This document shows, in pieces, positions 1 to 63,811 of a DNA stretch of 64,000 nt (position 1 is the stretch's first letter; every line of letters begins with the position of its first letter). Under the pieces are notes generated by a model that was given only the letters and a program-made list of their open reading frames with translations, was not told where the DNA came from and did no database searches. The position numbers were made by a program, and so were the translations under genes. Source of the stretch: an uncultured delta proteobacterium (GTDB taxonomy: Bacteria > Desulfobacterota > Binatia > UBA9968); contig CAVXEP010000014.1 in the NCBI GenBank assembly GCA_963760795.1, positions 1 to 64,000 on the forward strand, written 5' to 3'.

Positions 1-101
1 GTTTTGCCGTCGAAGGAGAGCGTTTTTTCTTGACTGTCTGTTTCAACCGGCTCTCGTAGCCACAGAGCACTGACATCTATCTTGGGAAGACCGGTTCGGC
101 G

Positions 102-1757
102 TTAAAATTGATAACGCATCTTGAGAAACACCGAATCCTTCTCGTCGAAAAAACCGAAGGACTTGAACTTATTGCGGCCGCCGTAGATCACTGCCGTCAG
201 AGTGAAGCGGAGTTTTTCGTTGCCCGGCGGGGCGTAGCTGAGCGCCGGATTGACCGCGTAGTAACCCGCCGGGTCGTAGGCGAGAAAGACATCCGGCAGG
301 AGCGTGTCGCCCAAGTAGCCGGTGCCGGCGCGAAACGTCAGCGTCGTCGATATTCGTTTGATCCGCTCCATGCTGGAAAACGGCCGAATGCCGTCCTCGT
401 GATTGAAAATAACGCTCTGAAAAAGTTGCACTGACAGATTGAACGCGCGCCAGGGATCGTCGGGGTGGAGTAGTGGAATGAGCGTCGTGCGATCGAGACC
501 GAGAGCATAGCGTAGCGTATGTTTCTCAACGACGCCGTCGGGATATCGGCAGCTCGGCCCGGCGCCTAGCCCGGTGGCGGCGCCGGTCTGGCAATTGCGC
601 CCAGGATAATCCGCAATGTTGTAGGGCTTATGCGGCAAAACAACCACTTCGCCGCGCAGCGTCGAGTTGACCGGCAGCTGCATCAGGGTGCCGATCGGAT
701 AGTTGAACTGTCCGGCGACGCTATGGCCGCGGCCGTTGATCAGGTCCAAGTTGATCTTTGTGCCGTTGGGCGGGCAGCGCGGCGGCCCACACAGCACCGG
801 CTGCCCCTTCATCTTGAAAACCATGTCGGCCCCTTGGGGGTTGTAACCCCAGATATAACCCAAGGCGAAATTGAGCTTGCCTAAATTATGCGTCAGCCGG
901 CCGCCGAGTTTCCACGAATCCGCCGACTCCGGCAGCTCGCGCTGGGTAAAGGGCACGACCACCGGCGCCGCACCCAGCGGATTGGCAAACAGCCGGCCAA
1001 AGGCGATGCGCGTCTCGGGATGGCTCGACCAGCGACCGTATTTGATGGTGCGATCGCTGGTGTCGTTGCTGCCGACCACTTCATCGACTCTTTGTCTGGC
1101 CCGGTCGAGCGCCCCAGGCAGGACAAAAACATCGAGGATCGTATTGGACTCGGGTTGAATCGTGTAGAGCCCGCGCAATCCCCAAGATGGGATTCGGGTC
1201 TCGTCCAGGTTGAAAAGATTGGGCGCCGCCGGCGGGGCGAACATCCCGTCTTGCGGGTTGATTATATCGAGCAGCCGAATTCCGTCGGTCTCGCCCCAGG
1301 AAATAAACTGCCGCCCCCAGCGCAGCACCAACCGGTCGCTCGGTTTGTAATCCAACACCGCTTCCCACGGCACCGGACTATATTCGTCGTAATATTTATT
1401 CGACAGGCCGCTCACGCCGGCGCTCGGCTGCACCGACTGCTTGCGGCTGGTGCTTTCCATTGCATAGCGCGGCTCCTTGACGAACTTCCACGCCAAGAAG
1501 AGCTTCCAGTCATCGCTGAACTTGAGGTTGAGCTCCGGCTGGATGGTCAGCCGGTTCATGTCGAAACGGTTCGAAGTATCGAAGAAGCGGCTGCCATGGC
1601 TTATCGCCAGCCCCGTCGCGTTTTCGATAAAACCGCCGAATCTCACGTTGTTCTCAATGAACTGCTCGAATCCGCTGCCGCGGAGCGGCGCCGTGGACGT
1701 CATCGTCGCCAACCAAACTAACCCCACCCATAAATGACATGTCGACCGCCGATTCAT
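102..1757 (-). CDS. DUF1302-like outer-membrane beta-barrel protein
   Basis: 551 aa; signal peptide; RWGRQFISWGETDG/DIINPQD motif typical of DUF1302; C-terminal aromatic beta-signal (MRYQF); divergent from a DUF1329-like gene. Confidence 0.75.
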   Translation of the reverse strand: MNRRSTCHLWVGLVWLATMTSTAPLRGSGFEQFIENNVRFGGFIENATGLAISHGSRFFDTSNRFDMNRLTIQPELNLKFSDDWKLFLAWKFVKEPRYAMESTSRKQSVQPSAGVSGLSNKYYDEYSPVPWEAVLDYKPSDRLVLRWGRQFISWGETDGIRLLDIINPQDGMFAPPAAPNLFNLDETRIPSWGLRGLYTIQPESNTILDVFVLPGALDRARQRVDEVVGSNDTSDRTIKYGRWSSHPETRIAFGRLFANPLGAAPVVVPFTQRELPESADSWKLGGRLTHNLGKLNFALGYIWGYNPQGADMVFKMKGQPVLCGPPRCPPNGTKINLDLINGRGHSVAGQFNYPIGTLMQLPVNSTLRGEVVVLPHKPYNIADYPGRNCQTGAATGLGAGPSCRYPDGVVEKHTLRYALGLDRTTLIPLLHPDDPWRAFNLSVQLFQSVIFNHEDGIRPFSSMERIKRISTTLTFRAGTGYLGDTLLPDVFLAYDPAGYYAVNPALSYAPPGNEKLRFTLTAVIYGGRNKFKSFGFFDEKDSVFLKMRYQF

Positions 1758-1794
1758 ATCACTCCCGTATGGACCTGTTTCTTTCCACTCATGG

Positions 1795-1809
1795 GCAAGC
1801 CAAATGCCA
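1795..1809 (-). promoter_or_regulatory. sigma54 (-24/-12) promoter for DUF1302-like gene
   Basis: minus strand TGGCATTTGGCTTGC = GG-N10-GC, about 40 nt upstream of the ATG at 1757. Confidence 0.7.
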
Positions 1810-1882
1810 CTGTGATTACCGAGCTAATTCATTGGCGACCCATCATAAACGTCAATAGCCTGTATCAAATTCTCCATAGGGA

Positions 1883-1900
1883 TGTGTAAAAAAATACTCA
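1883..1900. promoter_or_regulatory. candidate bEBP upstream activating sequence
   Basis: imperfect 18-bp palindrome TGTGTA-AAAAAA-TACTCA between two divergent sigma54 promoters; similar site at 8889-8906. Confidence 0.45.
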
Positions 1901-1995
1901 CCCGACTCGTCTGATTGAACCGCACTAACCTCAATTAGGCTGACCATCAGGAAGTTACGACAGTAGAGCTTGCCTTTGCTGAAACCAGCCTACCA

Positions 1996-2011
1996 TGGCG
2001 CATGGATTGCT
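1996..2011 (+). promoter_or_regulatory. sigma54 (-24/-12) promoter for DUF1329-SBP-HK-RR operon
   Basis: TGGCGCATGGATTGCT = GG-N10-GC, about 80 nt upstream of ATG 2093. Confidence 0.7.
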
Positions 2012-2092
2012 AATATAATTCGCTTGCGATAGTGGGTCGATTGGACGAGACGACTCTATCACTCAGTTCCGATTTGCGGGAGCTGGCATTCA

Positions 2093-3334
2093 ATGAGGTT
2101 AACCACACAACAAAAAATACACAGGCTTTCCTGCTCGTTCGCGATTTTTGTTTTTTTCTTGCTTGGCGTACCGGCAACGGTTCACGCCGCCGATGCTGAC
2201 CTCAAACCGGGCGACACTATCGGCCCCAATAGTTGGGAGCGCGCCAAAGGCATGGTCGGCGAGAACCTGCTAAACCGCATTAAGTCGGGCTACAGTTTTA
2301 AGATCAAGCAAAGCCGATCCCTGGGCAATCCCAAGGAGTACGACGCCGCAACGAGCCTATATGCGGGTTCGGTCAAATTAGCAGCGAATGGCGAGCTGCT
2401 GAACTATGTCGCCGGATCGCCGTTTCCTGAAGTCGCTCCCAGCGATCCGCAAATCGCGCTGAAACTTATTTGGAACTTCTATTGGCGCTGGCTCGGCGAC
2501 GACTACAAAACCGGCGGCGGCACGGGGGAAGGCAAGATCATCCGCTACGCCATCGAAAAAGATGGCTCGGAAAGGCGCGCAGACGTGCTGCATCACACGA
2601 TCAGAACACGCGGTCGAGTCACCTTGGACGCGAAGCCATCGCTCCCAGGCTATGAACATATCGACTGGATGCAGCTGCGCGCCGACGAATACCCGCGCGA
2701 CACGGCCGGGACGACAACCCTGGAGATTCGCTACAGCGATGCCAAGAGAGAAGACGATCTTTATATCTATGTGCCGAGCATTCGCCGCATACGCCGCGCG
2801 CCACCGACCCAACGGTGCGCCACCATCGCCCCGAGTGAGTTCAATTTCGACGACATCAACAACTTTAATGCAAAAATTGCTGATTTTAACTATCGTTTTT
2901 TAGGCCGGACTAAAATGTTGGGCAATCTTGCTCAGGAACGCGTCCCTTTTGAACGCAAGAGCGGGGACTATCTGCCGTCAAAAGAAAATTGGGAAGTCGT
3001 CGAGTCCTATGGCGTTGAGATCTCTCCCAAGGATTCAGGTTACTGTTATCCACGCAAGGCGATCTATTTCGATACGCGAACCTTCGAAGTTCTATGGGCA
3101 ATGACTTGGGATGGCAAGGGAAACTATTGGAAGGAACAGTTCTCACTGCGAACACCGATAAAACTTGCCGACGGCCAAGAGACCCTGTCCATCGGCACCG
3201 CGGTCGTAACCAACGTGCAAAATGGCCGATCGACGTTGGTCGATGCCGTAAGAGCCTACAATCAAGGTTACCAGCCGACGCTTTTCACTCTGGCGACTTT
3301 GCAGACGGTCATGCGTGGAGGGTCGCTTCGGTAA
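2093..3334 (+). CDS. DUF1329-like periplasmic protein (LolA-like fold)
   Basis: 413 aa; signal peptide; NYVAGSPFP, IWNF, YVPSIRRIRR and WKE motifs recalled for DUF1329. Confidence 0.8.
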   Translation: MRLTTQQKIHRLSCSFAIFVFFLLGVPATVHAADADLKPGDTIGPNSWERAKGMVGENLLNRIKSGYSFKIKQSRSLGNPKEYDAATSLYAGSVKLAANGELLNYVAGSPFPEVAPSDPQIALKLIWNFYWRWLGDDYKTGGGTGEGKIIRYAIEKDGSERRADVLHHTIRTRGRVTLDAKPSLPGYEHIDWMQLRADEYPRDTAGTTTLEIRYSDAKREDDLYIYVPSIRRIRRAPPTQRCATIAPSEFNFDDINNFNAKIADFNYRFLGRTKMLGNLAQERVPFERKSGDYLPSKENWEVVESYGVEISPKDSGYCYPRKAIYFDTRTFEVLWAMTWDGKGNYWKEQFSLRTPIKLADGQETLSIGTAVVTNVQNGRSTLVDAVRAYNQGYQPTLFTLATLQTVMRGGSLR

Positions 3335-3402
3335 GCGGAACACCTGCCGGCGCGCTGAACCAAGGGAGTCGGGTCGCGGTAAATCCGCGACGGGGATTCG
3401 CG

Positions 3403-4386
3403 ATGAAAGTTTGCTGGGCACTGCCAGTCATTGTTTTGTTACTAACGGGCGCCTCAATTGCCGGGCAATCCCGGTCCCAGTTACCCCACATGGTGCTGAT
3501 CGGCATCGGTAAGCCCGGCATCGTGGTACCCCAAGTAAGGGGCCTGTTCGACGGCTTGGAGGAGGCGGGCTACATCGACGGTAAGAATCTTTTTGTTCAC
3601 CATCTTCGCAGCGAAAGCGCGGCGGAGCTTCGCGATCGTCTGACGGAACTGGTGCGGCGAAAAGTCGACATCATCGTCACTTCGAGCGCCAGCGAAACCA
3701 CCATCGCCCAGCAAGTCACCAGGGAGATCCCGATTGTCTTCGCCCCTTCGCTCGACCCCGTCAGAATGGGGTTCGTCAAATCGCGCGCTCGTCCCGATAC
3801 CAATCTCACCGGACTGAGCTATACCCGCAACCAGGCGGACAATGGTAAACAGCTGGCGGTGTTCAAGGAATTCGTACCAGGGCTGCGCCGGGTGACGCTA
3901 TTTTACGACGGGCGGCCGGCCATCGGCACCCCGGAGTCGATTCGCGCCTCGGTCAGGCGCATCGCTCAACATCTGAACATTCAACTGAGCGAACATCCCG
4001 TCACATCCAGCGCAGACGCAGTGAAAGTCCTCCAGCCCATGTCCAAAAGTGCCATCGACGGAGCGTTTCTCATCTGCACCGCGGTGTTCAGAGGGATAAA
4101 ACCGCTGGCCGATACCGCGGCGCAGATCGGCGTGCCGCTGTTCGGCTGCACGGCAGCCCAGGTCGCGGACGAAGGCGCTCTGATGACCTACACGCCCGAT
4201 ATCTATTTAATCGGCTACCGCGGCGCGTGGTACGTCGACCGCATACTCAAAGGCGCCAAGCCGGATCAACTTCCGGTCGAGGCGCCGCGCCAACTGGAAT
4301 TGGTGATCAATCTTAAAAACGCCAAAGCGGTCGGTCTAAAAATTCCGCCGGAGCGGCTGATCTTAGCGGACAAAGTGTTTCAATAA
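3403..4386 (+). CDS. ABC transporter substrate-binding protein (ABC_sub_bind/PF04392 type)
   Basis: start refined to ATG 3403 (signal peptide follows); DPVRMGFVKS..P..NLTG and YVDRILKGAKP.LPVE.P...ELVINLK motifs; stop overlaps next start (TAATG). Confidence 0.85.
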   Translation: MKVCWALPVIVLLLTGASIAGQSRSQLPHMVLIGIGKPGIVVPQVRGLFDGLEEAGYIDGKNLFVHHLRSESAAELRDRLTELVRRKVDIIVTSSASETTIAQQVTREIPIVFAPSLDPVRMGFVKSRARPDTNLTGLSYTRNQADNGKQLAVFKEFVPGLRRVTLFYDGRPAIGTPESIRASVRRIAQHLNIQLSEHPVTSSADAVKVLQPMSKSAIDGAFLICTAVFRGIKPLADTAAQIGVPLFGCTAAQVADEGALMTYTPDIYLIGYRGAWYVDRILKGAKPDQLPVEAPRQLELVINLKNAKAVGLKIPPERLILADKVFQ

Positions 4387-7334
4387 TGCAAAATCATTCT
4401 GGCCGCCTGGCACGGCAGTATTTTTTGGTCTTCGTCGTACTGCTCGGCGGCGGCTTGATCGTCAGCGGCGCCCTCGAGCTCTACTTCCGCTACGGCGAAA
4501 GCCGCCAGCAGATCGCCGTGGTGCAAGGCGAGATCGCCAGCAACGCGGCGCGGCGCATCGCCCAATTCATTCTTACCATCGAAGAGCACATGAAGGCAGC
4601 GACGGTAAGCAGCGTCGTCGCGCGCCAGGGCATCGGGCCGGCGTATCAGTTCGAACTAGCCAAACTGCTTATGATTGCACCGGCCATCAGCGAACTGCTC
4701 GCCATTGGCGCCGACGGCCGGGTGCGGGCTTTCGTCTCGCGCTTTAGGGTCGCGCAAGACGCCGACGAACAGAACCTCTCCAAGGCTGCGAGCTTCCTCC
4801 AAGCCAAACAGGGAGTCACTTTTTTTGGTCCGGTCAACTTCGTCGATGAATCTGAGCCATCGATCGCCATCGCGGTGCCCATTGAACAATTTCCCGGCCA
4901 TGTCATCGGCACACTGCATGCTCAAGTCGACTTGCGCCAGATCTGGGAAGTTGTGCGCGATCTCAAGTTCAGCGATACCGGTTACGCCTACGTCGTGAGC
5001 CGCGCCGGCGATCTGATCGCCCATTCCAATCCCGGTTTAGTTTTACAGCGCCTACGCGCGGCGCATTTGACCCAAGTACGGACCGCGTTTCAACCCAACC
5101 CGGTGGCGCCCACACCGAGGACGACCATGGCCAAGGACTTTGCCGGGCAGGATGTGCTGAGCTCTTTTGTCTTCCTACCCAACCTTGATTGGGCCGTCTT
5201 CGTCGAGCAGCCGCTCAGCGAGGCGCACAAGAGCTTGTATGGGTCGATTCTACGCACCTCCACCCTGTTGCTTATCGGTTTGGGCACGGCTCTGGTCGCC
5301 AGCGTCTTCGTCGCCCGGCGCGTGGTCCGCCCGTTGGAAGCTCTGCGCCGCGGCGTCGAAAGAATCGGTTCCGGCGACTTGAACCACCGTATCGAAATCG
5401 CAACCGGCAATGAGATCGAAGTGCTCGCCGATGAATTCAACAAGATGGCCGGCGAAATCAAAAACGCCTATCAAGGACTTGAAGATAAAGTGCAGCAGCG
5501 CACCAAAGAACTGACGGCGCTTCTCGACGTCGCCGCTACCGCGACTCAGTCCTTCGACATCGACGTGGTATTGCGCCAAGTGGCGGAGAAAATCTCTGAG
5601 ATCTTCGAACTTTATGCGGTGCTCATCTACCTCTATGAACCCAATCAAACGGATCTGCGGGTGCGCGCTCTGACCGGCTACGCGCCCCAAGAATTCGCGC
5701 AAAAATTATTCAAGCGCGGCCAAGGAATTGTCGGTAGGGTCGCCGACACCGGGGAGCCGCTTCTGTTCGCCGATGCGCAAAGCGATCCAGGCTACCTGGC
5801 AGCGAGCCAAAGCCAAGCGGCGAAAGAATTGGGCATTCATTTCTTTGCGGGCTTTCCGATCAAATCGAAGGGCCGGGTGTTGGGCGCCATTGTCTGCAAT
5901 GGCCGGTCGCCGCGCCAATTGACGGAACCAGAGCACCGGCTGCTCACTTCCATGGCGGATCAGATCGGCCCGGCCATCGACAACGTTAACCTGTTTGACG
6001 AAGCAAAAAGTAAAAGCGCAGAACTCGAACGGCGCAATCGCGAAGTGGTCGATGCCCTGGAGCGTCAAACTGCGGTGGCCGAGATGCTCCGCGCCATGGC
6101 GCACACCCTGAGCGACTTACAAAGTTTTTTCGACACCATGATCGCCGACACCGTCAGGCTGACTCGGGCCACCGGCGGTGTCATTCGCCTGGCGGACAAC
6201 ACCGGCGCGCTGCGCTATGTCGCCCACTATCACAATGGTGCGCATCGCCTGCGAGAGGTCGAGAAGCAGCCGCTACCGGCCGACGAGAACGGCGCGGCGA
6301 TGCAGGCGTATCGCCAACAGAGCCCGGTGCAGTTTAGCGATGTCTTGGAACAACCGCCGCCGTTGGGCCGGCCGAAATCGACCGCCACGCGCACCGTGCT
6401 GGCGGTGCCACTGCTCCAAGAGGGCGTCTCCATCGGCGTCATCGTGGTCTTTCGCCACTTCGTCGAGCCGTTCACCGAGCCGCAAGTGGAACTGGTCACC
6501 ACCTTTGCCGACCAAGCCGTGGTCGCGATCAAAAACATCAACCTGTTTCAGGAACTTGAGGCGCGCACGCGCGAGCTGGAGTCGGCCAACGATCGCCTTA
6601 AAGAGCTCGACAAACTCAAATCCGGTTTTGTCTCGAATGTCTCCCACGAGCTCAGAACTCCGCTCACAGCCATCGGCAGTTTGGTCGACAATATGCTCGA
6701 CGGTCTAACCGGGCCGCTCAACACCAAGCAAGCGCACTACATTAGCGGCATCAAGGACAGCACCGAAAGGCTGGCGCGGCTGATTCACGATCTGCTCGAT
6801 CTCTCGGTCATCGAATCGGGCCGCATGGAGATCAAACCCAGCACATTTCAATTATCGTCGCTGATAACCGAGGTTGTCGAGAATCTTCGGCCGGTGGCTC
6901 GGGACAAGGCTATCGAACTGGACGGCGGTTCGCCCAACCGCGATGATCTTGCCTGGGCCGATCGCGACAAGGTCACCCAGGTGCTCACCAATCTAGTGAC
7001 CAACGCCGTCAAATTCACGCCCAATGGCGGCAAAGTCAGAATTTTTGTCGAACCCGTCGAGAGTGGTTACTGGCTCCAGGTCGGCGTCAGCGATAACGGT
7101 CCGGGCATTCCACCCGAAGAAGCGGGGAGAATCTTCGACGAGTTTTACCAAATCGGTCAGCCCGGGGGAGAAAAGGCCAAAGGGGTTGGCCTCGGTTTGG
7201 CTATATGTAAAAAATTGATCGACATGCATGGGGGCCAGATACGCGTGGAGAGCACCCCTGGGGCCGGCAGCACGTTTTATTTCACCGTTCCTGCGCATGT
7301 CGAACAGTCGTCAGTACAAGCTGCGCTGAATTGA
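4386..7334 (+). CDS. sensor histidine kinase (TM-Cache-TM-HAMP-GAF-GAF-HisKA-HATPase)
   Basis: 982 aa; two TM helices flanking a Cache-like domain (GYAYVVS..G.LIAH); HAMP; two GAF domains; H-box SHELRTPL; N box NLVTNAVKF; G boxes DNGPGI, GVGLGL. Confidence 0.93.
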   Translation: MQNHSGRLARQYFLVFVVLLGGGLIVSGALELYFRYGESRQQIAVVQGEIASNAARRIAQFILTIEEHMKAATVSSVVARQGIGPAYQFELAKLLMIAPAISELLAIGADGRVRAFVSRFRVAQDADEQNLSKAASFLQAKQGVTFFGPVNFVDESEPSIAIAVPIEQFPGHVIGTLHAQVDLRQIWEVVRDLKFSDTGYAYVVSRAGDLIAHSNPGLVLQRLRAAHLTQVRTAFQPNPVAPTPRTTMAKDFAGQDVLSSFVFLPNLDWAVFVEQPLSEAHKSLYGSILRTSTLLLIGLGTALVASVFVARRVVRPLEALRRGVERIGSGDLNHRIEIATGNEIEVLADEFNKMAGEIKNAYQGLEDKVQQRTKELTALLDVAATATQSFDIDVVLRQVAEKISEIFELYAVLIYLYEPNQTDLRVRALTGYAPQEFAQKLFKRGQGIVGRVADTGEPLLFADAQSDPGYLAASQSQAAKELGIHFFAGFPIKSKGRVLGAIVCNGRSPRQLTEPEHRLLTSMADQIGPAIDNVNLFDEAKSKSAELERRNREVVDALERQTAVAEMLRAMAHTLSDLQSFFDTMIADTVRLTRATGGVIRLADNTGALRYVAHYHNGAHRLREVEKQPLPADENGAAMQAYRQQSPVQFSDVLEQPPPLGRPKSTATRTVLAVPLLQEGVSIGVIVVFRHFVEPFTEPQVELVTTFADQAVVAIKNINLFQELEARTRELESANDRLKELDKLKSGFVSNVSHELRTPLTAIGSLVDNMLDGLTGPLNTKQAHYISGIKDSTERLARLIHDLLDLSVIESGRMEIKPSTFQLSSLITEVVENLRPVARDKAIELDGGSPNRDDLAWADRDKVTQVLTNLVTNAVKFTPNGGKVRIFVEPVESGYWLQVGVSDNGPGIPPEEAGRIFDEFYQIGQPGGEKAKGVGLGLAICKKLIDMHGGQIRVESTPGAGSTFYFTVPAHVEQSSVQAALN

Positions 7335-7345
7335 GGTCTGTCCCT

Positions 7346-8701
7346 ATGACTGAACCGCAAGAAACCATTCTAGTCGTCGACGACGATCCCTACATCCAAG
7401 AAGCGCTCAAAGACCGGCTGGTATCCCTCGGCTATCAGGTCACGCAAGCCAGCGATGGCAAACAGGCTTTAGAGATGATCGGCCGACAAACCCCGCAGAT
7501 GGCTTTCCTCGATATCGAGATGCCCGGAATGAAGGGCATGGAAGTTCTCAAAGAGCTGCGCCGCCAGGAGAAAGATTTTCCGGTGGTCATGATCACCGCC
7601 TACGGCACCATCGACATCGCCGTCGAGGCGATGAAAGAAGGCGCCGCGGATTTTGTCGCCAAACCGTTTAAAGGCAGCCATATCGCGATGGTGGTGCAAC
7701 GGACGATGGAGCAACAGCGCTTGCGCCGCGGCATTGAAGTGCTGACCCAAGAGGTCGACAAACGCTACCAAATGGTTCCTGGCAAGAGCGAGAGAATGGC
7801 CCAAGCGACCCAAGCCGCCAAGAAAGCCGCGGCGACCCGCAGCACCATATTGCTGCTCGGCGAAAGCGGCGTCGGCAAGGAGCTGTTCGCCCGCGCCGTG
7901 CATAACTGGAGCGAGCGCCACGACCTGCCGTTCGTGGCGATCAACTGCGTCGGCCTGTCGAAAGACTTGTTGGAAAGCGAATTGTTCGGTTACGAACGCG
8001 GCGCCTTTACCGGCGCCCAGCAAAGAAAGAAGGGGAAGATCGAGCTGGCCCAGGGCGGCACGGTATTTCTCGACGAGATCGGCGATATCTCTGAGGAGAT
8101 TCAGGCCAAGCTGCTGCGCTTCTTGCAAGAACGGGAGTTCGAGCGGGTCGGCGGCACCGAGCTGATCAGCGTCGACGTGCGCATCATCGCCGCGACCAAT
8201 CGCAACCTGGAGGCCGCAGTCAAGGACGGTAGATTCCGCGAGGATCTATTTTACCGGATCAACGTCGTGCCGATCACCTTGCCGCCGCTCCGCGAGCGCA
8301 AGGAAGATATCCCAGAGTTGGCCGAGTTTTTTCTCCGGCGCTTTTCCCAGGAATCGAAAAAGGATTTCCTGCGGATCGCCGACGACGCCCTGGTCAAGCT
8401 GTCCGCCTTCGACTGGCCGGGCAACGTCCGCGAGCTCGCCAATGTCATCGAGCGCGCCGTGGTTTTAGGCGAACCGCCATCGATCCAAGCCGACGATCTG
8501 CCGGTGGAAATATTAGCTGTGCTCCGATCCAGTCCGGCAAAAACGTCCCTCAATTATCAAGAGACCGTCGACGAATACCGCCGCGAAGTGATCGTCAAAG
8601 CGTTACAACAAACCAATGGCAACCGCACCGCCGCGGCTAAAATTTTAGGCCTCGAACGCGCCTACTTACAAAAGCTGCTCAAGTCCTTCTGCATCAAGTG
8701 A
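7346..8701 (+). CDS. sigma54-dependent response regulator (NtrC family, REC-AAA+-Fis HTH)
   Basis: REC (VVDDD, LDIEMP); Walker A GESGVGKE; GAFTGA; FLDEIGD; WPGNVREL; C-terminal HTH. Confidence 0.95.
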
Positions 8702-8754
8702 TATATCTCTCGATGATGGTGATACCCATCACCTTCGAGCGCAGCCAAATCACT

Positions 8755-8830
8755 CATACCGGCGAACGCCGGTATCCAAGAGCGGGTGGCGGCCGGATAA
8801 AACCTATAATCCGGCCTTCGCGGGAATGAC
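8755..8830. repeat. REP-like GTCAT..C/GAATGAC-family palindromic element
   Basis: TCATACCGGCGAACGCCGGTATCC...TCCGGCCTTCGCGGGAATGAC; relatives near 26245-26295 and 37675-37731. Confidence 0.55.
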
Positions 8831-8888
8831 AGACGAGAAATCAAGTCACCGCTCAGATGGTTTCTACTAGTAGCTCACTCGATTGACG

Positions 8889-8906
8889 TGAGTGGTTTCC
8901 CACACA
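8889..8906. promoter_or_regulatory. candidate bEBP upstream activating sequence
   Basis: TGAGTGGTTTCCCACACA matches reverse complement of 1883-1900 (TGAGT-N8-ACACA); about 120 bp upstream of the sigma54 promoter at 9023. Confidence 0.45.
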
Positions 8907-9022
8907 GGTCTGTTTTCTTTTAGACACTTCGCCACCGCGATTTAATCCAATCGCAATCATCGCGCGATTAGATTTTTCTTATATTTCAATAGCGTGGAGC
9001 AGCTGGAAAGAAAAATTCGGCT

Positions 9023-9038
9023 TGGCACGAGCCATGCT
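9023..9038 (+). promoter_or_regulatory. sigma54 (-24/-12) promoter
   Basis: TGGCACGAGCCATGCT = GG-N10-GC, about 30 nt upstream of ATG 9069, which has a GAGG RBS. Confidence 0.7.
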
Positions 9039-9068
9039 GTAGAAATCGCTCATCCTGAGGAAAAATCG

Positions 9069-9560
9069 ATGCGCTGCCAAATTCTCGTGCCTATCAAGGG
9101 CCGCGATCACATCGAAGAGTTTCTGCCCTATCTCGAAGATATGGCTCGACCCGACACCAAGATTGTCTTCTTGGTTCACTTGAACGTTGACCGATTCAGC
9201 GAACTTACCCGTCAACTTCTTACGATCCAAAGCGCTAAGCCTGGCGATTTTTCCGGCGCCTCCGTGGCACCGCATGATTCCAGCGAGCCGCCGTCGAACC
9301 TCGCGCGCCGAATCGAGCGCGCCACCCGGGAACTAAGCGATCATGGGGCGCAGATCGATGTGAAGTTTTACAGCGGTCGAGTCAAGCCAATCCTGCGCCA
9401 GTACAACGAGGTTGAAGCTACAAGTCTGGTAATTATGCGCCCGGCGATAAACCGGGCAAGGCGCTGGCTGCGTAGTCTGATTGCAGCTTTAGGAATTGTC
9501 AGACCGGCCATGCCGGTGCGCCTGTGTCACCCGGCCGATTTCACCAGTAGGGACTTATAA
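9069..9560 (+). CDS. universal stress protein (USP)-like hypothetical protein
   Basis: ATG 9069 after GAGGAAAAATCG; N-terminal ILVPI..., IVFLVH and C-terminal G....IL.......LVIM pattern resemble the USP fold. Confidence 0.55.
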   Translation: MRCQILVPIKGRDHIEEFLPYLEDMARPDTKIVFLVHLNVDRFSELTRQLLTIQSAKPGDFSGASVAPHDSSEPPSNLARRIERATRELSDHGAQIDVKFYSGRVKPILRQYNEVEATSLVIMRPAINRARRWLRSLIAALGIVRPAMPVRLCHPADFTSRDL

Positions 9561-9773
9561 AATATCGTTTGCCGTGATTGCGGTTCTATCCCCAGCATAA
9601 CGAATATGCCGCGGGGGGCGACCAGAGCCGGTAATTTTTTTAAAGTTGTCTAATTTTGGACGGAATTCCGGCTAACCGAAGGCGTAACATGCATGAGCTT
9701 ATTACCAAACCGTAAATCATAATCGCCCTGCTACAGCTGCGCCAGCCGCACATCACTCAATTGAAGGAGACAG

Positions 9774-10223
9774 ATGGTGACCAACGATCGCTTCCTATAC
9801 TGCTGCGGTTGCAACGAAGTGCACAAGGTCACACCCTTCGATAAAGCGCCGACCTACGACCTGCAAGGCTCAAGCGTGCGCGAGATTCCGACGGATGACC
9901 GGCGCCGCTTCATGGAACGGCACGCGGGTCATGCCATCGAAGAGCTATCGAGCGTGGCCGAAGATTGGTTGAAGCCGCAAAGCGCCATCGATCCCATGGC
10001 CGAGAGCTACGTTTTTGTTGCCAACGAACGCTACTTTTTCCTCCTGCACCGTTCGCGCCGCAGCATCGCCGAACCGATCGTCTACCAGGTGATGCCGCGC
10101 CAACTCTTGCCTTCGGCCCTCAATCTCGAGGCCCTGAGCCAGTGGACGCGCAGCCTGCGCGCCCATTGGCTGCTTGGCAAAGCCCGGCTACGCCGCAAGT
10201 TCGTAGGCGGCCAGTTCAATTAG
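9774..10223 (+). CDS. hypothetical protein, possible Zn-binding
   Basis: 149 aa; AAGGAG RBS; CCGC...H and RHAGH motifs. Confidence 0.6.
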   Translation: MVTNDRFLYCCGCNEVHKVTPFDKAPTYDLQGSSVREIPTDDRRRFMERHAGHAIEELSSVAEDWLKPQSAIDPMAESYVFVANERYFFLLHRSRRSIAEPIVYQVMPRQLLPSALNLEALSQWTRSLRAHWLLGKARLRRKFVGGQFN

Positions 10224-10329
10224 CTCACGCTGTTTACCCCAGCCGAATCGACGCGCTAAAAAATAATCTTATCCGCCGCACGGCGGAGGTTTTGCCCCTC
10301 GCCTTACGGTTTACTATCAACTGCGTAAG

Positions 10330-16054: not shown

Positions 16055-17749
16055 ATGAGTTCCGTCGCCCTACTGCTCTCGCCGATGTGGCTCACGTGGA
16101 AAAACAGTTTTTTCCGCGGCACCCACTCTTGGACGAGAAGACTCTCGCTGGCGCTCCTCGCCGGCCTATTCTGGATCGGCACCTATCTGGTCGTGCGCCG
16201 GGTCCTGCGTTACTTCGAAACCGTCTACGAGCTCGGCCCCGCCCTTGCTTATCAATTGCTGTTGATAATCTTGCTGACCTTCCTGTCGATGTTGCTGTTC
16301 AGCAATTTGGTGGCGGCGCTGTCGACTTTTTTTCTCGCCCGCGACCTCGACTTGATCCACGCCACGCCGGTGGCGCCCAATTCATTTTTCTTCGCCCGCT
16401 TGATCGCCACGACGATCAATTCGTCGTGGATGGTGCTGTTCTTTTCGCTGCCGATCTTCGCCGCCTACGGCTCGGTATTCGGCGGCGGCATCGAGCTTTA
16501 TTTTTGGATCGCGGTGATTCTGCCGCTATTTTTGCTAATCCCCGCGGCCATCGGCGCATTAGTCACCCATCTGTTGGTCTATGCCATGCCGGCCAAGCGC
16601 ATCCGCGACCTGCTCTTTTTCATCGGCCTGTTCGCGTTTCTGATCATGTATTTCCTGTTCCGCTTTTCCCAACCCGAGCGCTTGGTGCAGCCGGAGTCCT
16701 TCGGCAACTTCATGCAGTTCCTGAGCGCCATGGAGACGCCGTCGTCGCCCTATCTGCCGAGCAGTTGGTTGGCGGAAATCCTCGCCGGGACGATTGTTCA
16801 AGCGCGACACCGACCAGGGTTTCTTCTTCGCCCTGTTGGCGAGCTACGCGATGTTTTTACCGGTGGCGGCCAGTTGGTGTTCCAGCGCGGTCTATCTCGA
16901 CGGCTGGTCGAAAGCCCAGGAATCGCGCCAGGGCCGGCGCAAACTCGCCTGGCTCGACCGCCTGCTCGAAGTGATAACCCGGCCGTTCCCGGCGATCACC
17001 CGCGCGTTAATGCTCAAGGACATCAAGACGTTCCTGCGCGACACCACCCAGTGGTCGCAGCTGTTTCTGCTCGCCGCCTTGATCGTCGTCTATCTTTACA
17101 ACTTCAAAGTTCTGCCCCTCGACCGCTCGCCGATGCCGGCGGGGACTATCCGAACGATTGTTTCCTTCGCCAACTTGGGCTTAGCCGGATTCGTCTTGAG
17201 CGCCATCGCCATCCGCTTCGCCTTTCCGGCGGTGAGTTTGGAAGGCAAAGCCTTTTGGCTGCTTCAGACCGCGCCGATTTCGCTGCGAGCATTGTTGTGG
17301 AGCAAGTTTTGGATGAACTTCATACCGCTCCTATTCCTCGGCGAAGTGCTAATATTTCTCCAGCAATCTCCTGCTCAAAGTGCCGGGCTGGATGATGGCG
17401 CTATCGCTCATCACGATGTTCTTGATGACCTTCGGCATCGCCGCCATCGGCGTCGGCTTGGGCGCGCTCTATCCCAACTTCAACTATGAAAATGCCGCCG
17501 AGATTCCCACCAGCTTCGGCGGCGCCGTGTGCATGATCTTCAGCATCGGCTTCATCGCCATCGCCGTCATGATCGTCGCCTGGCCGATCTACATCCTGGC
17601 GATGCGCACCTTTCACCGCGGGCGAATTTTTCTGCCCGAGTATACCGTGATTGCGCCGTCACTGCTTGATCGTGCTAGCTGTCACCGTCGTAACAGTCGT
17701 CGTTGCCTTACGCGTCGGCATCAAGCACTTGGAACAGTTGAAGGAATAA
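16055..17749 (+). CDS. ABC exporter permease (frameshifts about 16795, 17360, 17665)
   Basis: multi-TM protein across ORFs 16055-17395, 16794-17489 and 17380-17880; RFAFPAVSLEG..FWLLQTAP motif; reconstructed stop TAA 17747-17749. Confidence 0.8.
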
Positions 17750-17896
17750 ACTGGCGGCGATCGCTTTGGCAGTACTTAGCCTTCAGGTACCCTATCCCCT
17801 TGCGGAAGAGGGTTAGCATGAGGGGAATCACAGCAACCGCAGATAGCGAATTCGACATCGCAGTGAGTGCGACGATATAACTCAAAGGAGTATTCC

Positions 17897-19480: not shown

Positions 19481-19652
19481 ATCCTTTCCTCCCTTTCTGC
19501 GAGGTATCCTACGGAATGGTTAGGTTAAGTCAAGGTACAAAATTTGGCACACTGAGAATGTGCGCATGGCCAGGGGTTAATTCAAGCCCTGTGTTTCAAA
19601 ATTGCTATGAATTGACCTAATATCGCATAGTTGCCAATTGGAGGGATATGCC

Positions 19653-20526
19653 ATGCGAGTCGGAGTAGTGTTTCCGCAAACCGAAATCGGCGCTGATCCA
19701 TACTATGTCAAGGACTACGCTCAGGCCGCCGAAGAGCTGGGCTTTGCCCATCTCCTAGCCTACGACCATGTGGTCGGCGCCAACCCGGCGAGCCGGCCCA
19801 ACTGGAAAGCGCCCTACAGTCACTTAGACATGTTCCACGAGCCGTTGGTTCTTTTCGGCTACCTCGCCGGCGTGACCAGGAAAATCGAATTTTGCACCGG
19901 CATCGTCATCCTGCCGCAGCGCCAAACCGTCTTGGTCGCCAAACAAGCTGCCGCATTAGACGTCTTGAGCGGCGGTCGTTTGCGCTTCGGCATCGGTATC
20001 GGCTGGAACCCGGTGGAATATGAAGCCCTCGGCGAAGATTTCAAAAATCGCGGCCGCCGCTGCGAAGAGCAAATCGAAGTCATGCGCCAGCTCTGGACGA
20101 ATCCGACTGTGACGTTCGCAGGCCGCTGGCATAAGATCACTGACGCCGGAATTAACCCGCTCGCCCGTGCAGAGGCCGATCCCGATCTGGTTCGGCGGTA
20201 GCGACGAGCGCGCGTTACGCCGGCTCGCGAGATTCGGTGACGGCTGGTTTCCACTAGTCGGACCCGATGAAAAATGCCGGGCGATGATCGATAAGATTCG
20301 TGGTTACGCGCAGGAAGCCGGGCGCGACCCGCAAGCAGTCGGCATCGAAGGCCGCATATCCTACGGCCAAGGCGCATCGGAGGCTTGGCGCACAGATCTA
20401 GCAGCATGGAACACCCTTGGCGCCACGCATGTGAGCTTCAACACCATGAAAGCGGGACTGAAATCGCCGTCAGCGCATATCGAAGCGCTGCGGCGATTTG
20501 CCAAAGCTATTGCCGCGACTTCGTAA
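19653..20526 (+). CDS. LLM-class (probably F420-dependent) oxidoreductase (frameshift about 20165)
   Basis: YDHV, HEPLV, LPQRQTVLVAKQAA.LD.LSGGR..FGIGIGWN..EY; C-terminal PIWFGG..GDGW in a second frame. Confidence 0.88.
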
Positions 20527-34012: not shown

Positions 34013-34042
34013 TTGACAGGATTTTTACCTTTCCTATACACT
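34013..34042 (+). promoter_or_regulatory. sigma70-like promoter
   Basis: TTGACA-N18-TACACT upstream of ATG 34079, which has an AAGGAG RBS. Confidence 0.5.
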
Positions 34043-37865: not shown

Positions 37866-38918
37866 CTACCGATTCAAATATTTTTTCATCAGGCCGTTGA
37901 TGTAACCTTGGATCGACGGCGACACGACCAGGAGTTGGCGCAGCAGTTGCTCAGTTTCGCCGGCTGAAAGTATTTGCGCATCTTCACCGCTCACCCGCTT
38001 CAACTCCAGTTTGAACTCGGCGTCATCCTTCATGCGCGTAAAGCCGTCGCGCAGTTGGTGCAACAAGTGCGCCGGCGTCTTTGGCGCCGCATGCAGGGGC
38101 CGACCAACGCTGTCAGTGCCGGCAAATATGGTATAGGCCTGCCACGGCACACCGCTCGGCCGTTGCTCCTTGGCCACATCTTCGAACACCGGCACATCCG
38201 GGAACTCGCTGCGCCTTTGGAAGCCACCGTTCGCGCCCAACATGCCCTGCTGCACAAACGGATAGAAACCCTGGCCGATAAACTTCTGCAAGGTTGGTAA
38301 AGTCGCGGTTGGATAAATATCGGTTTCGTTGCGTTCAAAGGCGAGCTGAATCTCTCCGCCGCCGGGATAACCTTGCACCCACCGGACATTCCATTTGAGA
38401 AACTCCGCGCCCCAGAGAAAGATCGCGTTCCAACTTTCGTCGCCCGAGCGGACACCGACTTTGAGCGGCTCGCCGGCGCCGGTCAGACGCTCCAGGCTTT
38501 TTTTTCGGATCAGCGCCACCGACGTGCCGCGCCGCACGCTGCCGAGCGCCGGCCAGCGGGTCAGATCATGCTTGGCCTCTTTAACGCTCATGGCCTGCTG
38601 ATTGATCGTCGTCGTGCTGGTGTAGTGCAGCGTCAAGCCATCGGGCTTGGCGAATTGCTCGAACCAATTGCTCGCTACCGTTCCTCCCGCCCCCGGCATA
38701 TTTTGCACCATCATCGTCGGATGGCCCGGAATATAACTTCCCAAGAAGCGCGCCATCATGCGCGCCTCGGCATCGACTCCGCCGCCGCCGGGAAAGCCGG
38801 CGATGATGCGAATGGTCTTGCCCTTGAAATAGGCTTCCTGGGCGGACAAAAGATTTGTCTCAGGAAATAGAAGAATACATACGAACGAAACCACGCTATA
38901 GCTGAATTTAATCCGCAT
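37866..38918 (-). CDS. Bug/TctC-family substrate-binding protein
   Basis: GGAGG RBS before ATG 38918; YFKGKTIRII.GFP.GGG.D..AR; QNMPGAGG; GYPGG. Confidence 0.87.
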   Translation of the reverse strand: MRIKFSYSVVSFVCILLFPETNLLSAQEAYFKGKTIRIIAGFPGGGGVDAEARMMARFLGSYIPGHPTMMVQNMPGAGGTVASNWFEQFAKPDGLTLHYTSTTTINQQAMSVKEAKHDLTRWPALGSVRRGTSVALIRKKSLERLTGAGEPLKVGVRSGDESWNAIFLWGAEFLKWNVRWVQGYPGGGEIQLAFERNETDIYPTATLPTLQKFIGQGFYPFVQQGMLGANGGFQRRSEFPDVPVFEDVAKEQRPSGVPWQAYTIFAGTDSVGRPLHAAPKTPAHLLHQLRDGFTRMKDDAEFKLELKRVSGEDAQILSAGETEQLLRQLLVVSPSIQGYINGLMKKYLNR

Positions 38919-54339: not shown

Positions 54340-55404
54340 TCATCGAATCACCTTCTGCGCCCGCGCCAGCACGGTCGGCGGAACCGTCAAGCCGATCTGC
54401 TTCGCCGTTTTTAGATTGATGAAGAGATCGATGTTATCGACTCCCTCCACCGGCAAGTCCTTAGGATTAACACCAGTGAGAATGCGCTGGACGTACTTCG
54501 CTGACAGGCGACCAATTTCGTGGCGGCTCACGCTATAGCTGGCGAGACCTCCCATGATGACAGAACTTTGGCTCTGGAACATAGTCGGAAACTTCTTGAC
54601 ACTTGCCGTGTCGATGATCAGTTGATTCTGGAGAGCCACATGCGGGTCCGACACTTCGAAGAACGCATCCATCTCCTTGGCGCTAAGCGCTCGTATACGC
54701 GCCTGAAGTTCCTCGACGGAAGCGAAATGCCGTTCGAGTAGCTCGATCCCCAGAGGTCGCGCGACTTCCCGCACCAACTTGGCGGCCTGGCTGCCAACAG
54801 GACCGCGAGGATCGTAGAACGTCACTACCCGGCGGAGTTTCGGGACCATCTCTTTCAAGATCTCCAGTCGCTTCGCGGTCAGGTCGGTGTCCCGGTAGAA
54901 CACGCCTGTGAGTCTTCCCCCCGGTTTTGCGAAGCTGTCCACGAGCCCAAGATCAACCGGGTCGGCCCCGGCACAGAATACGATGGGAATGTCTGCCGTC
55001 GCCCGCCTGGCTGGCATGGTTACGGAGGATTGCGTTGTATAGATCAGGTCGACTTTCTCTTGTTCGAGATTCCTCGCCGCCTCCTCTGCCACCTTGGTAT
55101 CGCCCTTCGTATCTCGGATTGTCAGAACAAATTGTTTTCCCTCTTCAAACCCCAACTTCCTTAGTCCGACCCGGAGCCCGTCGATTACCTCGTACCACGG
55201 GCCGCCTGAAGTGATGACACCGACACGGTAGACCTTTGGCTGCTGGGCCTGAGCCACAGCCCCAGCCATCACGAGCACGAAAGCGATTAACGAAAACCAT
55301 GGCCATTTTAGTCCGCGGGGCAGCTTTTGGTCCGCGGGGCCGCTTTTCGATTTTAGATTGCCGGAACAAGAATGGGCAACTCGCCTCCAACATCTTTTGT
55401 TCAT
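54340..55404 (-). CDS. ABC transporter substrate-binding protein (ABC_sub_bind/PF04392 type)
   Basis: AQAQQP.VYRVG, DPV.LGLV.S.AKPGG..TG, KRLEILKE, FINLKTAKQIGLTVP. Confidence 0.88.
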   Translation of the reverse strand: MNKRCWRRVAHSCSGNLKSKSGPADQKLPRGLKWPWFSLIAFVLVMAGAVAQAQQPKVYRVGVITSGGPWYEVIDGLRVGLRKLGFEEGKQFVLTIRDTKGDTKVAEEAARNLEQEKVDLIYTTQSSVTMPARRATADIPIVFCAGADPVDLGLVDSFAKPGGRLTGVFYRDTDLTAKRLEILKEMVPKLRRVVTFYDPRGPVGSQAAKLVREVARPLGIELLERHFASVEELQARIRALSAKEMDAFFEVSDPHVALQNQLIIDTASVKKFPTMFQSQSSVIMGGLASYSVSRHEIGRLSAKYVQRILTGVNPKDLPVEGVDNIDLFINLKTAKQIGLTVPPTVLARAQKVIR

Positions 55405-62812: not shown

Positions 62813-63811
62813 TCATCGAATCAGCCTACTCGCCCGCGCCAGCACCTCCGGCGCAATCGTCACGCCGATCTGCTTCGCCGTCTTGAGATTGATCACGAAC
62901 TCGAACTTCGTCGGCTGCTCCACCGGCAGATCGGCGGGCTTGGCTCCCTTCAGGATTCTGTCCACGAAATATGCGACGCGCCGGTAGCTGTCCGCTGAGT
63001 CCGCCCCGTAGGACATGAGCCCACCGGCATCTACAGCTTCTCTGTCTGGCGTACATCGACGGTAACCGGCTCTTTAACGCAAAGCCGACGATCCGTTTTT
63101 GGTTAGCAATCATTAGCGGGCCGCCGGAGCACGTAGAGTCCATCCGGGCGCTGCTTGTTTAGCGCAGCGAATACCTTGTCGAAATCGTCCGCAGCTCGTA
63201 CCTCCCAAGGCTGAAGAGTCAACTTCAGCGCACGCGCCGCGACTGGGAGAACCTCTTTCACCTCGAGTACACTGGCCCGGAATGGCCGGATCGTAGAGAA
63301 CCGCGACACGGGCAAGTTTGGGAACGGCTTCTTTGAGCAGCTCCAGCCGCTTCCCGCCTAGTTCTCTGTTAAGGTTTGTAATGCCGGTGACGTTGCCGCC
63401 GGGACGGGCAAGGCTTTCAATTAGGCCTGCCTCGACAGGATCGGCCCCACCGCCCATCATAACGATGGGAATCGTCTTGGTCGCATTCTTGGCCGCCCGG
63501 ATCCAGCGGGTCCCTCCTGCTACCACGATGATATCAACCTTGAGACGCACCAACTCGGCCGCAAGCTCAGGGACCCGATCGACGCTTCCCCTCCGCATAT
63601 CGGTACTCGATGGCGATGTTCTGTCCTTCTATGTAGCCACGCTCGCGCAGAGCCAGCCGAATTGCCTCGGCACGGGCGGACTCACTAGCTGGATCGCTCG
63701 CCGATAGATACCCTATCCGCGGGACTTTCTTCGGCTGCTGCGCCCGAGCTGAGACAAGGGAAGAGCCAAGAGCATCGAGCAAAAAGCTCGCCGAGTGATT
63801 TTTTTGTGCAT
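62813..63811 (-). CDS. ABC transporter substrate-binding protein (ABC_sub_bind type; several frameshifts)
   Basis: pieces in several frames: AQQPKKVPRIGYL, GYIEGQNIAIEYRYAEG, ESLARPGGNVTG, KRLELLKE, VDRILKGAKPADLPVEQPTKFEFVINLKTAK. Confidence 0.8.

Follow-up and report, generated by a model that had tools for sequence, protein, structure and literature searches.

Which genes answer to the only sigma-54 activator found in a stretch of DNA from an uncultured soil-type bacterium, and what would such a circuit be for? The stretch (hereafter the window) comprises 64,000 nucleotides of contig CAVXEP010000014.1 from a member of the Binatia with a genome of 57% G+C. Near its left end one leftward gene of the DUF1302 family and a rightward run of genes headed by a member of the DUF1329 family are separated by two divergent sigma-54-type promoters, P1 and P2. 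To our knowledge, DUF1302 and DUF1329 are widespread outer-membrane or periplasmic families that have neither a solved structure nor an agreed function. Here, we propose that the locus represents a sigma-54-dependent three-component signalling operon conserved in Binatia-like bacteria, a reading to which we assign a probability of about 65%. Gene families were called with Pfam on 52 open reading frames (ORFs) of the window, and transcription starts were derived from the sequence, so that all enhancer distances given below depend on them. The features that carry the argument are the following.

102..1757, minus strand: DUF1302-family gene for a putative outer-membrane barrel (PF06980, 551 aa, signal-peptide-like N-terminus)
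1794..1809, minus strand: P1, sigma-54-type promoter facing the DUF1302 gene (TGGCATTTGGCTTGCC; expected start about 1784, ATG at 1757)
1996..2011, plus strand: P2, sigma-54-type promoter of the operon for DUF1329, solute-binding protein, kinase and regulator (TGGCGCATGGATTGCT; expected start about 2022, ATG at 2093)
2093..3334, plus strand: gene for a DUF1329 / LolA-like periplasmic protein, the first of the operon (PF07044 1.3e-40, PF17131 5e-16)
3403..4386, plus strand: gene for a periplasmic solute-binding protein (SBP; PF04392, ABC_sub_bind, 2.5e-39)
4386..7334, plus strand: gene for a membrane sensor histidine kinase (HK) with two transmembrane segments (TM), arranged TM-dCache_1-TM-HAMP-GAF-GAF-HisKA-HATPase_c (Pfam; H-box in the translation)
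7331..8701, plus strand: gene for an NtrC-type response regulator, a bacterial enhancer-binding protein (bEBP) arranged REC-AAA+(Sigma54_activat)-HTH_8, GAFTGA intact
9023..9038, plus strand: P3, sigma-54-type promoter before orfU (TGGCACGAGCCATGCT; ATG at 9069)
9069..9560, plus strand: orfU, conserved hypothetical gene, 163 aa, alpha/beta fold weakly resembling universal stress proteins (USPs; homologues, AlphaFold2 model, Foldseek)

The operon and its sigma-54-type promoters

A first-pass annotation of this DNA had placed three GG-N10-GC promoters here, each before a gene, and they proved to be exact stringent matches. The sigma-54 consensus used has GG and GC doublets 10 nt apart in a TGGCAC-N5-TTGCW-like context and was not derived from these data. 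P1, P2 and P3 each match TGGCRY-N5-WTGCH without any deviation; the whole window holds six such matches against 1.29 expected, a count that one shuffle in 100 gets to. They are also the only intergenic ones among the six, the remaining matches at 37936(+), 41497(-) and 48215(-) being located inside ORFs of the list. With two mismatches allowed, however, 33 matches stand against 30.35 expected, so the loose consensus shows no enrichment in the window and is therefore useless as a test. All three promoters are oriented to a start codon 20-85 nt away, with a Shine-Dalgarno-like run at each start, and the distance from the -12 GC to the start codon amounts to 38 nt (1757), 83 nt (2093) and 32 nt (9069). 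In the best reading of these sites their sigma-54 dependence is predicted, and they would be served by the NtrC-type regulator of the locus itself. A site for integration host factor was sought with WATCARN4TTR and rejected: the pattern has two window matches against 2.2 expected, none of them in the locus, and the CATCAGGAAGTTA stretch at 1945-1957 fails it.

The genes of the run (2093-8701) are closely spaced. Between the DUF1329 and SBP genes there are 68 nt, the SBP stop and the kinase start overlap by 1 nt, and the kinase-regulator junction is a 4-nt overlap or an 11-nt gap. No intergenic terminator-like site was found on the plus strand of this interval, its sole plus-strand match (3413) being inside the SBP gene. 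Because of the tight packing and the lack of such a site the kinase and the regulator are most likely transcribed from P2, which would itself be activated by the regulator. Since both genes thus belong to an operon driven by a promoter of the circuit, the latter is probably positively autoregulated, and the positive feedback suggested at first pass appears likely. An Rfam scan of positions 1-10300 at E up to 1 returned nothing.

The first-pass assignment of the two envelope families was borne out, both Pfam matches being above their gathering scores. DUF1302 is recognized with E 2.9e-11 and 43.5 bits (cutoff 23.2) over profile positions 81-541 of 541, DUF1329 with 140.2 bits (cutoff 23.1) and additionally as LolA_like with 59.3 bits (cutoff 30). 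The DUF1329 protein has at least 120 homologues, with 70-94% identity among the matches listed, and the few source names given include Candidatus Binatia; its nearest solved sequences are LolA-like lipoprotein-sorting proteins (3bk5, 2.5e-6). For the DUF1302 protein an AlphaFold2 model from a six-sequence alignment is mostly strand and, at a mean predicted local distance difference test (pLDDT) of 32.7, unusable. An 18-stranded barrel was reported for a Pseudomonas member of the family (PMC13499233).

Conservation in related loci

From an alignment of 25 DUF1329 homologues 14 loci of metagenome-assembled genomes (L001-L014) were retrieved that are labelled Binatia, Thermodesulfobacteriota or deltaproteobacteria, with one Verrucomicrobia among them. 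Gene order was read by tblastn and Pfam; the window together with the 14 loci makes 15 regions. In 13 of the 14 loci DUF1329 is followed by an SBP of PF04392. A dCache kinase follows the SBP in 12/12 loci with a contig long enough, and a bEBP follows the kinase in 10/10. Judged by gene order, the conserved unit is the DUF1329-SBP-HK-bEBP sensor operon and not the DUF1302/DUF1329 channel pair. The synteny expected from the first-pass annotation is hence retained for this order and for P2 and P3, but not for P1 or the adjacency of DUF1302.

For the promoters a weighted consensus with author-set weights was used that has a background of 116 matches in 528,992 strand-bases. In 11 of the 15 regions a sigma-54 site was detected not more than 250 nt upstream of the run's first gene (0.055 expected per region; binomial P 2.8e-11), the exceptions being L005, L006, L011 and L012. 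Within 400 nt after the bEBP stop, all nine regions that reach this far contain one (0.092 expected per region; binomial P 4.8e-10). These P values treat the loci as independent and thus overstate the case, because the loci are related. At P2 the GG, the TTGC and part of the spacer are invariant in an alignment of eight sequences, the 16-mer is near-identical even in distant loci, and L011 has a weaker homologous copy (CGGC for TGGC). A homologue of P1 is found in L014 at 9700(-).

A conserved short element of the type GCGATA-N-GGGTCGC was observed at 2026-2040 of the window, at about +5 to +22 of the expected P2 transcript. It is present in seven of eight aligned loci (window, L001-L004, L007 and L014). 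The element is a possible small hairpin with a stem of only 3 bp in the window, and Rfam has no match for it; it may serve as a binding site or stabilise the 5' end.

Around this core the loci vary. DUF1329 genes occur in tandem in L004 (two) and L007 (three), both GAF domains of the kinase are absent in L006, L008, L009 and L013, an additional stand-alone receiver is found in L006, and in L005 and L006 a soluble GAF kinase is encoded ahead of DUF1329. The DUF1329 genes of L013 and L014 are frameshifted, which looks like an assembly error. A peculiar neighbourhood was noticed upstream of the sensor operon in five loci (L003 1-9500, L004 1-4800, L007 1-4100, L009 1-5200 and L013 4000-9500): besides a divergent GAF-type bEBP it contains several small ORFs without a Pfam match, each behind a strong plus-strand sigma-54-like site. 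Such a sigma-54-dense neighbourhood is unusual, and it is absent from the window.

Orthologues of the DUF1302 protein (54-96% identity; Pfam 43-62 bits) occur in L001, L002, L011, L012 and L014. The gene is divergent beside the operon only in the window, L001, L002, L011 and L014 and codirectional in L012; L008 and L010 were left out of the adjacency count, as their contigs start too close to the operon. In L004 transposase genes of the IS110 family and of the rve type (5367-8452) are located directly upstream of the DUF1329 promoter, and it is possible that they caused the loss of DUF1302 adjacency in that lineage.

The first-pass annotation had suggested looking to the left of the window for YCF48-like or RND partners. 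The same-strand genes after DUF1302 encode a CoxG/SRPBCC protein and a GMC oxidoreductase in L014 and L002, and a Cu-oxidase_4 gene lies to the left of DUF1302 in L001. The window itself ends 101 nt past DUF1302; the reading of positions 1-101 as the start of a CoxG-like gene was rejected, since its 25 residues are unlike the L014 protein and the DNA aligns only loosely with an intergenic stretch of L014. By Pfam, no BNR/YCF48-like or RND/MMPL genes are present in window positions 1-13 kb, and among the 14 loci PSII_BNR and MMPL genes stand beside the pair only in L012. This locus holds the canonical four-gene cluster of DUF1302, DUF1329, YCF48/BNR and MMPL/RND, with a DUF1329 protein 60% identical to that of the window. 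A sigma-54-like site (TGGGAT-N5-CTGCT; 8131-8146) lies there about 60 nt before DUF1302, with no local bEBP.

Sensor, regulator and outputs

The real start of the SBP is most likely at 3403 and not at the listed 3094, because from there the protein has a signal-peptide-like N-terminus and, with 327 aa, a length like that of its homologues. Against the NCBIfam model TrpX it reaches 110 bits, under the cutoff of 390, and is therefore not that equivalog. Its nearest solved sequences are 3lkv, 3lft and 6hni; the three PF04392 proteins of solved structure bind L-Trp, L-Tyr or L-Phe (PMC10443332). The cysteines at residues 225 and 249 are invariant in 75 aligned PF04392 homologues, which suggests a conserved disulphide. 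According to Pfam the run contains no gene for an ABC permease or ATPase.

SBP-stimulated kinases are a known class in which the SBP genes adjoin signalling genes (PMC8050422). The same is found here, the SBP gene adjoining and overlapping the kinase gene in a run free of transporter genes. The N-terminal part of the kinase (residues 1-380, TM-dCache-TM-HAMP) is a member of a large family, of which 808 cluster representatives match it at E 1e-30 or better, and local similarity connects its dCache domain with the ligand-binding ones of the chemoreceptors PctA, PctC and Mlp. Residues 24-327 of the SBP (75-row alignment) and 36-292 of the kinase (71-row alignment) were submitted to complex prediction along with three controls. 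The score of 0.54 (runs 0.56, 0.54 and 0.51) falls in the weak band, the best control having 0.00; at least 83% of the contacts are common to the runs, and the pLDDT of the partner is 87 or higher. In calibration the mark of the tool was reached by 116 of 157 solved complexes and by 2 of 215 mismatched pairs, and at scores of 0.60 or less only 18 of the 157 passed, together with both of the mismatches that passed at all. As the strict adjacency of the two genes made the pairing likely beforehand, this weak-band pass can be taken as weak support for a putative complex. A limited search of the literature on PF04392 (COG2984, ABC_sub_bind) found no kinase partner.

As claimed at first pass, the locus encodes one NtrC-type activator with an intact GAFTGA motif. 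The bEBP (7331-8701) comprises the Pfam domains PF00072 (8.2e-32), PF00158 (6.2e-71) and PF02954 (7.9e-8), and in the translation the GAFTGA, the Walker motifs and the acidic pocket of REC are all intact. Among the scanned ORFs it is the only protein with Sigma54_activat. It remains below every named NCBIfam cutoff (AtoC 480 vs 714 bits as the best, NtrC 417 vs 559, ZraR 393 vs 760) and is, on these scores, no named equivalog among AtoC, NtrC, ZraR and NtrX. Two regions with putative upstream activating sequences were obtained with a position weight matrix (PWM).

1861..1900, strand not assigned: two adjacent candidate enhancer sites, 1861-1878 and 1883-1900, at about -96 from P1 and about -141 from P2
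8911..8928, strand not assigned: candidate enhancer site about 129 nt upstream of the expected P3 start

A shared 18-mer was sought in 20 regions upstream of promoters, 11 before the DUF1329 promoter and nine before the post-bEBP promoter. The best one is A/T-rich and of TGT...ACA type; its total is 250, and none of 20 shuffles exceeds 215. A PWM made from 14 instances, all of them from loci not close to the window, was run over the entire 64 kb, where the sites at 1883, 8911 and 1861 rank 1, 3 and tied 5-7; hence three of the top seven matches are in two regulatory regions that make up 0.79% of the window. In a stricter version, in which the window and its close relatives were also left out of the choice of the seed, three of the top ten fall into these 0.79% (binomial P 5.7e-5; equalled by one of 200 column-shuffled PWMs). 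The distances of about 96, 141 and 129 nt are normal for enhancer-binding proteins. The sites at 1861-1900 align with a long near-perfect palindromic element of L002, L003, L004 and L007, and L014 has the homologous position of the 8911 site. A shared upstream motif thus appears to link the promoter regions of the locus and can be considered a candidate enhancer. The second-best match of the first PWM, 34023-34040(-) with 13.4 bits, is at the start of an NMT1-type gene with no sigma-54 site nearby; it drops to rank 11 in the stricter version and is probably due to chance.

The label USP-like given to orfU at first pass has only weak support: weak fold matches and a paralogue near the Usp cutoff agree with it, but orfU itself has neither a Pfam match at E 0.001 or better (Usp, PF00582, included) nor an NCBIfam match. 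The paralogue, from L006, just misses the Usp cutoff of 24 bits with 23.4 bits. The AlphaFold2 model (pLDDT 64.5, predicted template modelling score 0.57) has a beta-alpha-beta layout, and Foldseek relates it weakly to many USPs (E about 1e-3, TM score about 0.4), with histidinol dehydrogenase as the top match. Its neighbours in the Atlas are Binatota clusters and a cluster of which 17% of the members have Usp; the profile of orfU gave only noise among PDB sequences (best E 0.048). All this is weakly consistent with a USP-like fold. By its conservation orfU is a real gene: it has 27 homologues down to 42% identity, and its family (relatives of about 30% identity included) follows the bEBP in four of nine regions, namely the window, L014, L006 with two copies and L007. 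One further gene follows.

9774..10223, plus strand: orfV, hypothetical gene, 149 aa, possibly co-transcribed with orfU, membership in the circuit uncertain (homologues after the bEBP in L003 and L004)

No lead for orfV was obtained from Pfam, NCBIfam or the Atlas (best Atlas score 0.84), and no sigma-54 site of its own exceeds the threshold in the window. Its homologue in L003 stands right behind a sigma-54 site at 16851. The post-bEBP promoter of L004 faces genes for an MtrC/MtrF-like multihaem cytochrome, a cytochrome c and an orfV homologue, and that of L009 and L013 a different small protein. The set of MtrC/MtrF-like outer-membrane multihaem cytochrome, cytochrome c and orfV homologue after the bEBP is seen both in L004 (16794-19733) and in L003 (16851-20622), which hints that the same sensor drives genes of extracellular electron transfer in some lineages.

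Farther to the right the window is rich in orphan periplasmic binding-protein genes. Between 23084 and 55404 there are at least seven of NMT1 type, three of SBP_bac type and a second PF04392 gene (54340-55404), mixed with hydantoinase A/B, MmgE/PrpD, Rieske oxygenase and creatinase-like genes; a further PF04392 fragment is found at 63113-63598. At 16055-17880 PF16949 (ABC_tran_2) is divided over two adjoining ORFs (profile positions 6-224 and 426-497), and a luciferase-like monooxygenase ORF at 19638-20201 corresponds to just positions 9-162 of a profile of 314. Frameshifts or truncation of these genes may be the cause.

Possible roles and known systems

In the proposed mechanism the PF04392 SBP would load a small solute and dock on the dCache domain of the kinase, which, judged by the domain families, would phosphorylate the REC domain of the NtrC-type activator. 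The latter would assemble on the A/T-rich TGT...ACA-type enhancers about 100-140 nt upstream and remodel the sigma-54 holoenzyme at P1, P2 and P3. From P2 the DUF1329-SBP-HK-bEBP operon itself would be driven (positive autoregulation), from P1 the divergent DUF1302 gene and from P3 the small USP-like gene. Of this scheme, a self-contained and probably self-activating sigma-54 circuit is well supported as a prediction by the comparison of loci. The promoters, the domains, the conserved gene order and the common upstream motif can be read directly from the sequences, while binding partners, ligand and direction of transport we infer throughout.

Several observations weigh against this reading or parts of it. 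L012 is without any sensor genes, L005 and L006 have TGGCAC-type sites with the -12 GC replaced, and no rpoN gene was seen in the 64-kb window. Additional bEBPs are encoded near the operon in L003, L004, L007, L009 and L013, so that cross-regulation is possible. Of the five regions in which DUF1302 is divergent, only the window and its near-twin L014 have a P1 above threshold. In L001 the site has lost its -12 GC (GC to GT) and about 260 nt are inserted; L002 and L011 offer weaker GG-N10-GC candidates, plausible in the former and weak in the latter. Adjacency of DUF1302 is limited to 6 of 13 determinable cases among window and loci, and on a DUF1329 tree (16 sequences, the frameshifted ones of L013 and L014 left out) this needs at least three changes, with 43 of 500 shuffles as low; as adjacency is not clearly clustered on the tree, an order of events cannot be derived from it. 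In L002 neither the GMC oxidoreductase nor CoxG has a signal peptide, and with gaps of about 120 nt between the genes their membership of a P1 operon is unsure. In the stricter PWM non-regulatory sites stand above the candidate enhancers (ranks 3 and 10 for the 1861-1900 pair, 4 for 8911), and the palindrome is degraded in the clade of the window. The motif is A/T-rich and so is intergenic DNA, hence part of the signal is compositional. Finally, the predicted SBP-kinase complex scores only in the weak band, and the aromatic amino acids bound by PF04392 proteins show no obvious fit to a hydrophobic substrate.

That the GG-N10-GC sites are chance matches in a genome of 57% G+C is nevertheless hardly credible: the unenriched loose consensus fits this idea, but the surplus of stringent matches, the exclusively intergenic position and correct orientation of P1-P3 and the positional conservation in 11/15 and 9/9 regions do not. 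A more serious objection is that DUF1302 and P1 stand outside the circuit as a clade-specific accident, with P1 non-functional or used by another activator and only P2 and P3 belonging to the system. The patchy adjacency, the near restriction of P1 to the window and L014 with its degenerate form in L001, the other bEBPs of several loci and the sigma-54-like site before DUF1302 in L012, where local sensor genes are missing, all point in this direction. Yet P1 is a strong match 38 nt from its start codon, two candidate enhancers between P1 and P2 are at a normal distance from it, DUF1302 and DUF1329 are partners elsewhere, and no second bEBP was found among the scanned ORFs of the window, so we consider this version unlikely. 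Less likely still is an SBP that merely serves an ABC importer encoded elsewhere, next to a plain two-component system whose dCache domain senses the ligand directly. The many orphan binding-protein genes of the window, the similarity of the dCache domain to those of PctA, PctC and Mlp and the weak-band complex score would suit it; the invariable position of the SBP gene directly before the kinase gene (12/12 reaching loci, 1-nt overlap in the window), the three controls at 0.00 against 0.54 and the rule that SBP genes beside signalling genes mark SBP-stimulated kinases (PMC8050422) argue for a sensory SBP.

As to physiology, our best guess, though held at well below even odds, is that the circuit induces the uptake or processing of an organic solute of hydrophobic or aromatic nature. 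The LolA-like carrier DUF1329 would then be its invariable output in the periplasm, and DUF1302 would be a partner in the outer membrane that is specific to the clade. The neighbouring GMC oxidoreductase and SRPBCC genes tend to suggest catabolism of such a compound, the cluster of L012 and the LolA-like fold rather lipid export. Binatota have been described as methylotrophs and alkane degraders. With the wiring unchanged, a somewhat less probable purpose is envelope homeostasis, i.e. an envelope-stress response of the ZraPSR or Cpx kind. DUF1329 and DUF1302 would then export or insert a lipid or cell-wall component, SBP and kinase would survey the periplasm or the outer membrane, and the stress output would be the USP-like protein. 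In fitness work, export of a cell-wall component was put forward as the joint task of DUF1302, DUF1329, a BNR/YCF48-like protein and an RND exporter (10.1101/072470), and L012 carries exactly these four genes. The LolA-like domain of DUF1329 and the outputs that differ by locus (USP-like genes vs MtrC/MtrF-like cytochromes in L004) are in line with such a role, as is ZraR, which drives divergent sigma-54 promoters of a periplasmic protein gene and its own two-component operon (PMC4987338). By contrast, no RND or BNR gene stands beside the sensor-linked DUF1329 in 13 of the 14 loci, the GMC oxidoreductase and SRPBCC genes after DUF1302 in L014 and L002 look catabolic, and a dedicated SBP suggests a defined small-molecule signal.

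DUF1329 could even be part of the sensor, a LolA-like carrier that passes a hydrophobic molecule to the PF04392 SBP or the dCache kinase. We regard this as a long shot, but it would explain why the operon begins with DUF1329 in all loci, in some of them with two or three copies in tandem, and why this protein is much more strongly conserved than the SBP (59-87% vs 44-90% identity across the same loci, typically about 70% vs about 47%). If true, it would mean a four-component pathway for sensing poorly soluble compounds and a first defined role for a dark protein family.

In any case the locus ties a DUF1329 subfamily firmly to an SBP, a kinase and a sigma-54 activator and has promoters that can be recognised as well as a candidate enhancer, and the function of this subfamily thereby becomes testable. 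The ligand of the SBP would identify the condition in which DUF1329 (and, in the clade of the window, DUF1302) is needed, and P1, P2 and P3 are ready reporters. The locus thus offers a handle on two protein families without assigned function, brings in a PF04392-type SBP as a further candidate partner of dCache kinases and provides a record of a predicted sigma-54 regulon from uncultured Binatia. In limited literature searches nothing was found on Binatota and sigma-54, nor any link of DUF1329 or PF04392 to a sigma-54 two-component system.

The first-pass annotation had not recognized the layout as a described one. It does have precedents in AioXSR and ZraPSR (PMC6011840, PMC4987338), and by analogy with them the regulatory logic is not new but wiring of a known kind. 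For the canonical cluster of DUF1302, DUF1329, BNR/YCF48 and RND genes in Shewanella, Pseudomonas and Kangiella the likeness is restricted to the first two families, as the window and 13 of the 14 loci have SBP, HK and bEBP after DUF1329 and not BNR and RND. The Pseudomonas pair is described with a LuxR-type regulator and not with a sigma-54 system (10.1101/2020.07.04.188060, PMC13499233). An esterase role was proposed for DUF1302/DUF1329 in the former of these sources; according to the latter an AlgE-like or carboxylate-channel-like barrel pairs with DUF1329 in an AlphaFold-Multimer model and adjoins LuxR-type regulators. Entry of the ligand through DUF1302/DUF1329, as assumed at first pass, is at most a hypothesis, export or an esterase role having been proposed instead.

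In LuxP-LuxQ, TorT-TorS and HptA-HptS an SBP docks on the extracytoplasmic domain of a kinase, and LuxQ and HptS use dCache-like domains for this as the kinase here would do (PMC8050422). These systems differ in their SBP families and output regulators, and docking in the present case is predicted only, with a weak in-silico score. ZraP/ZraSR of Salmonella and E. coli resembles the locus in a self-activating bEBP that controls divergent sigma-54 promoters (PMC4987338). However, ZraP has no homology to DUF1302 or DUF1329, ZraSR works without a separate SBP, the regulator of the window is far under the ZraR cutoff (see above), and a zinc or envelope-stress signal is not indicated here.

AioXSR, the arsenite-sensing system of Rhizobium sp. 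NT-26 and Agrobacterium, likewise has SBP, membrane kinase and regulator in one operon (PMC6011840, PMC7565993). AioX is the binding protein, AioS the kinase and AioR the regulator that binds upstream of an RpoN promoter, and it acts in this way on a neighbouring target operon (PMC6011840). The binding protein there is of another family than PF04392, and no DUF1329 gene heads the aio operon in the available description. Moreover, aioXSR is described as constitutive (PMC6011840), whereas the sensor operon of the window has a sigma-54-type promoter of its own, and the target of AioR is an oxidase, whereas here it would be DUF1302 and a USP-like gene.

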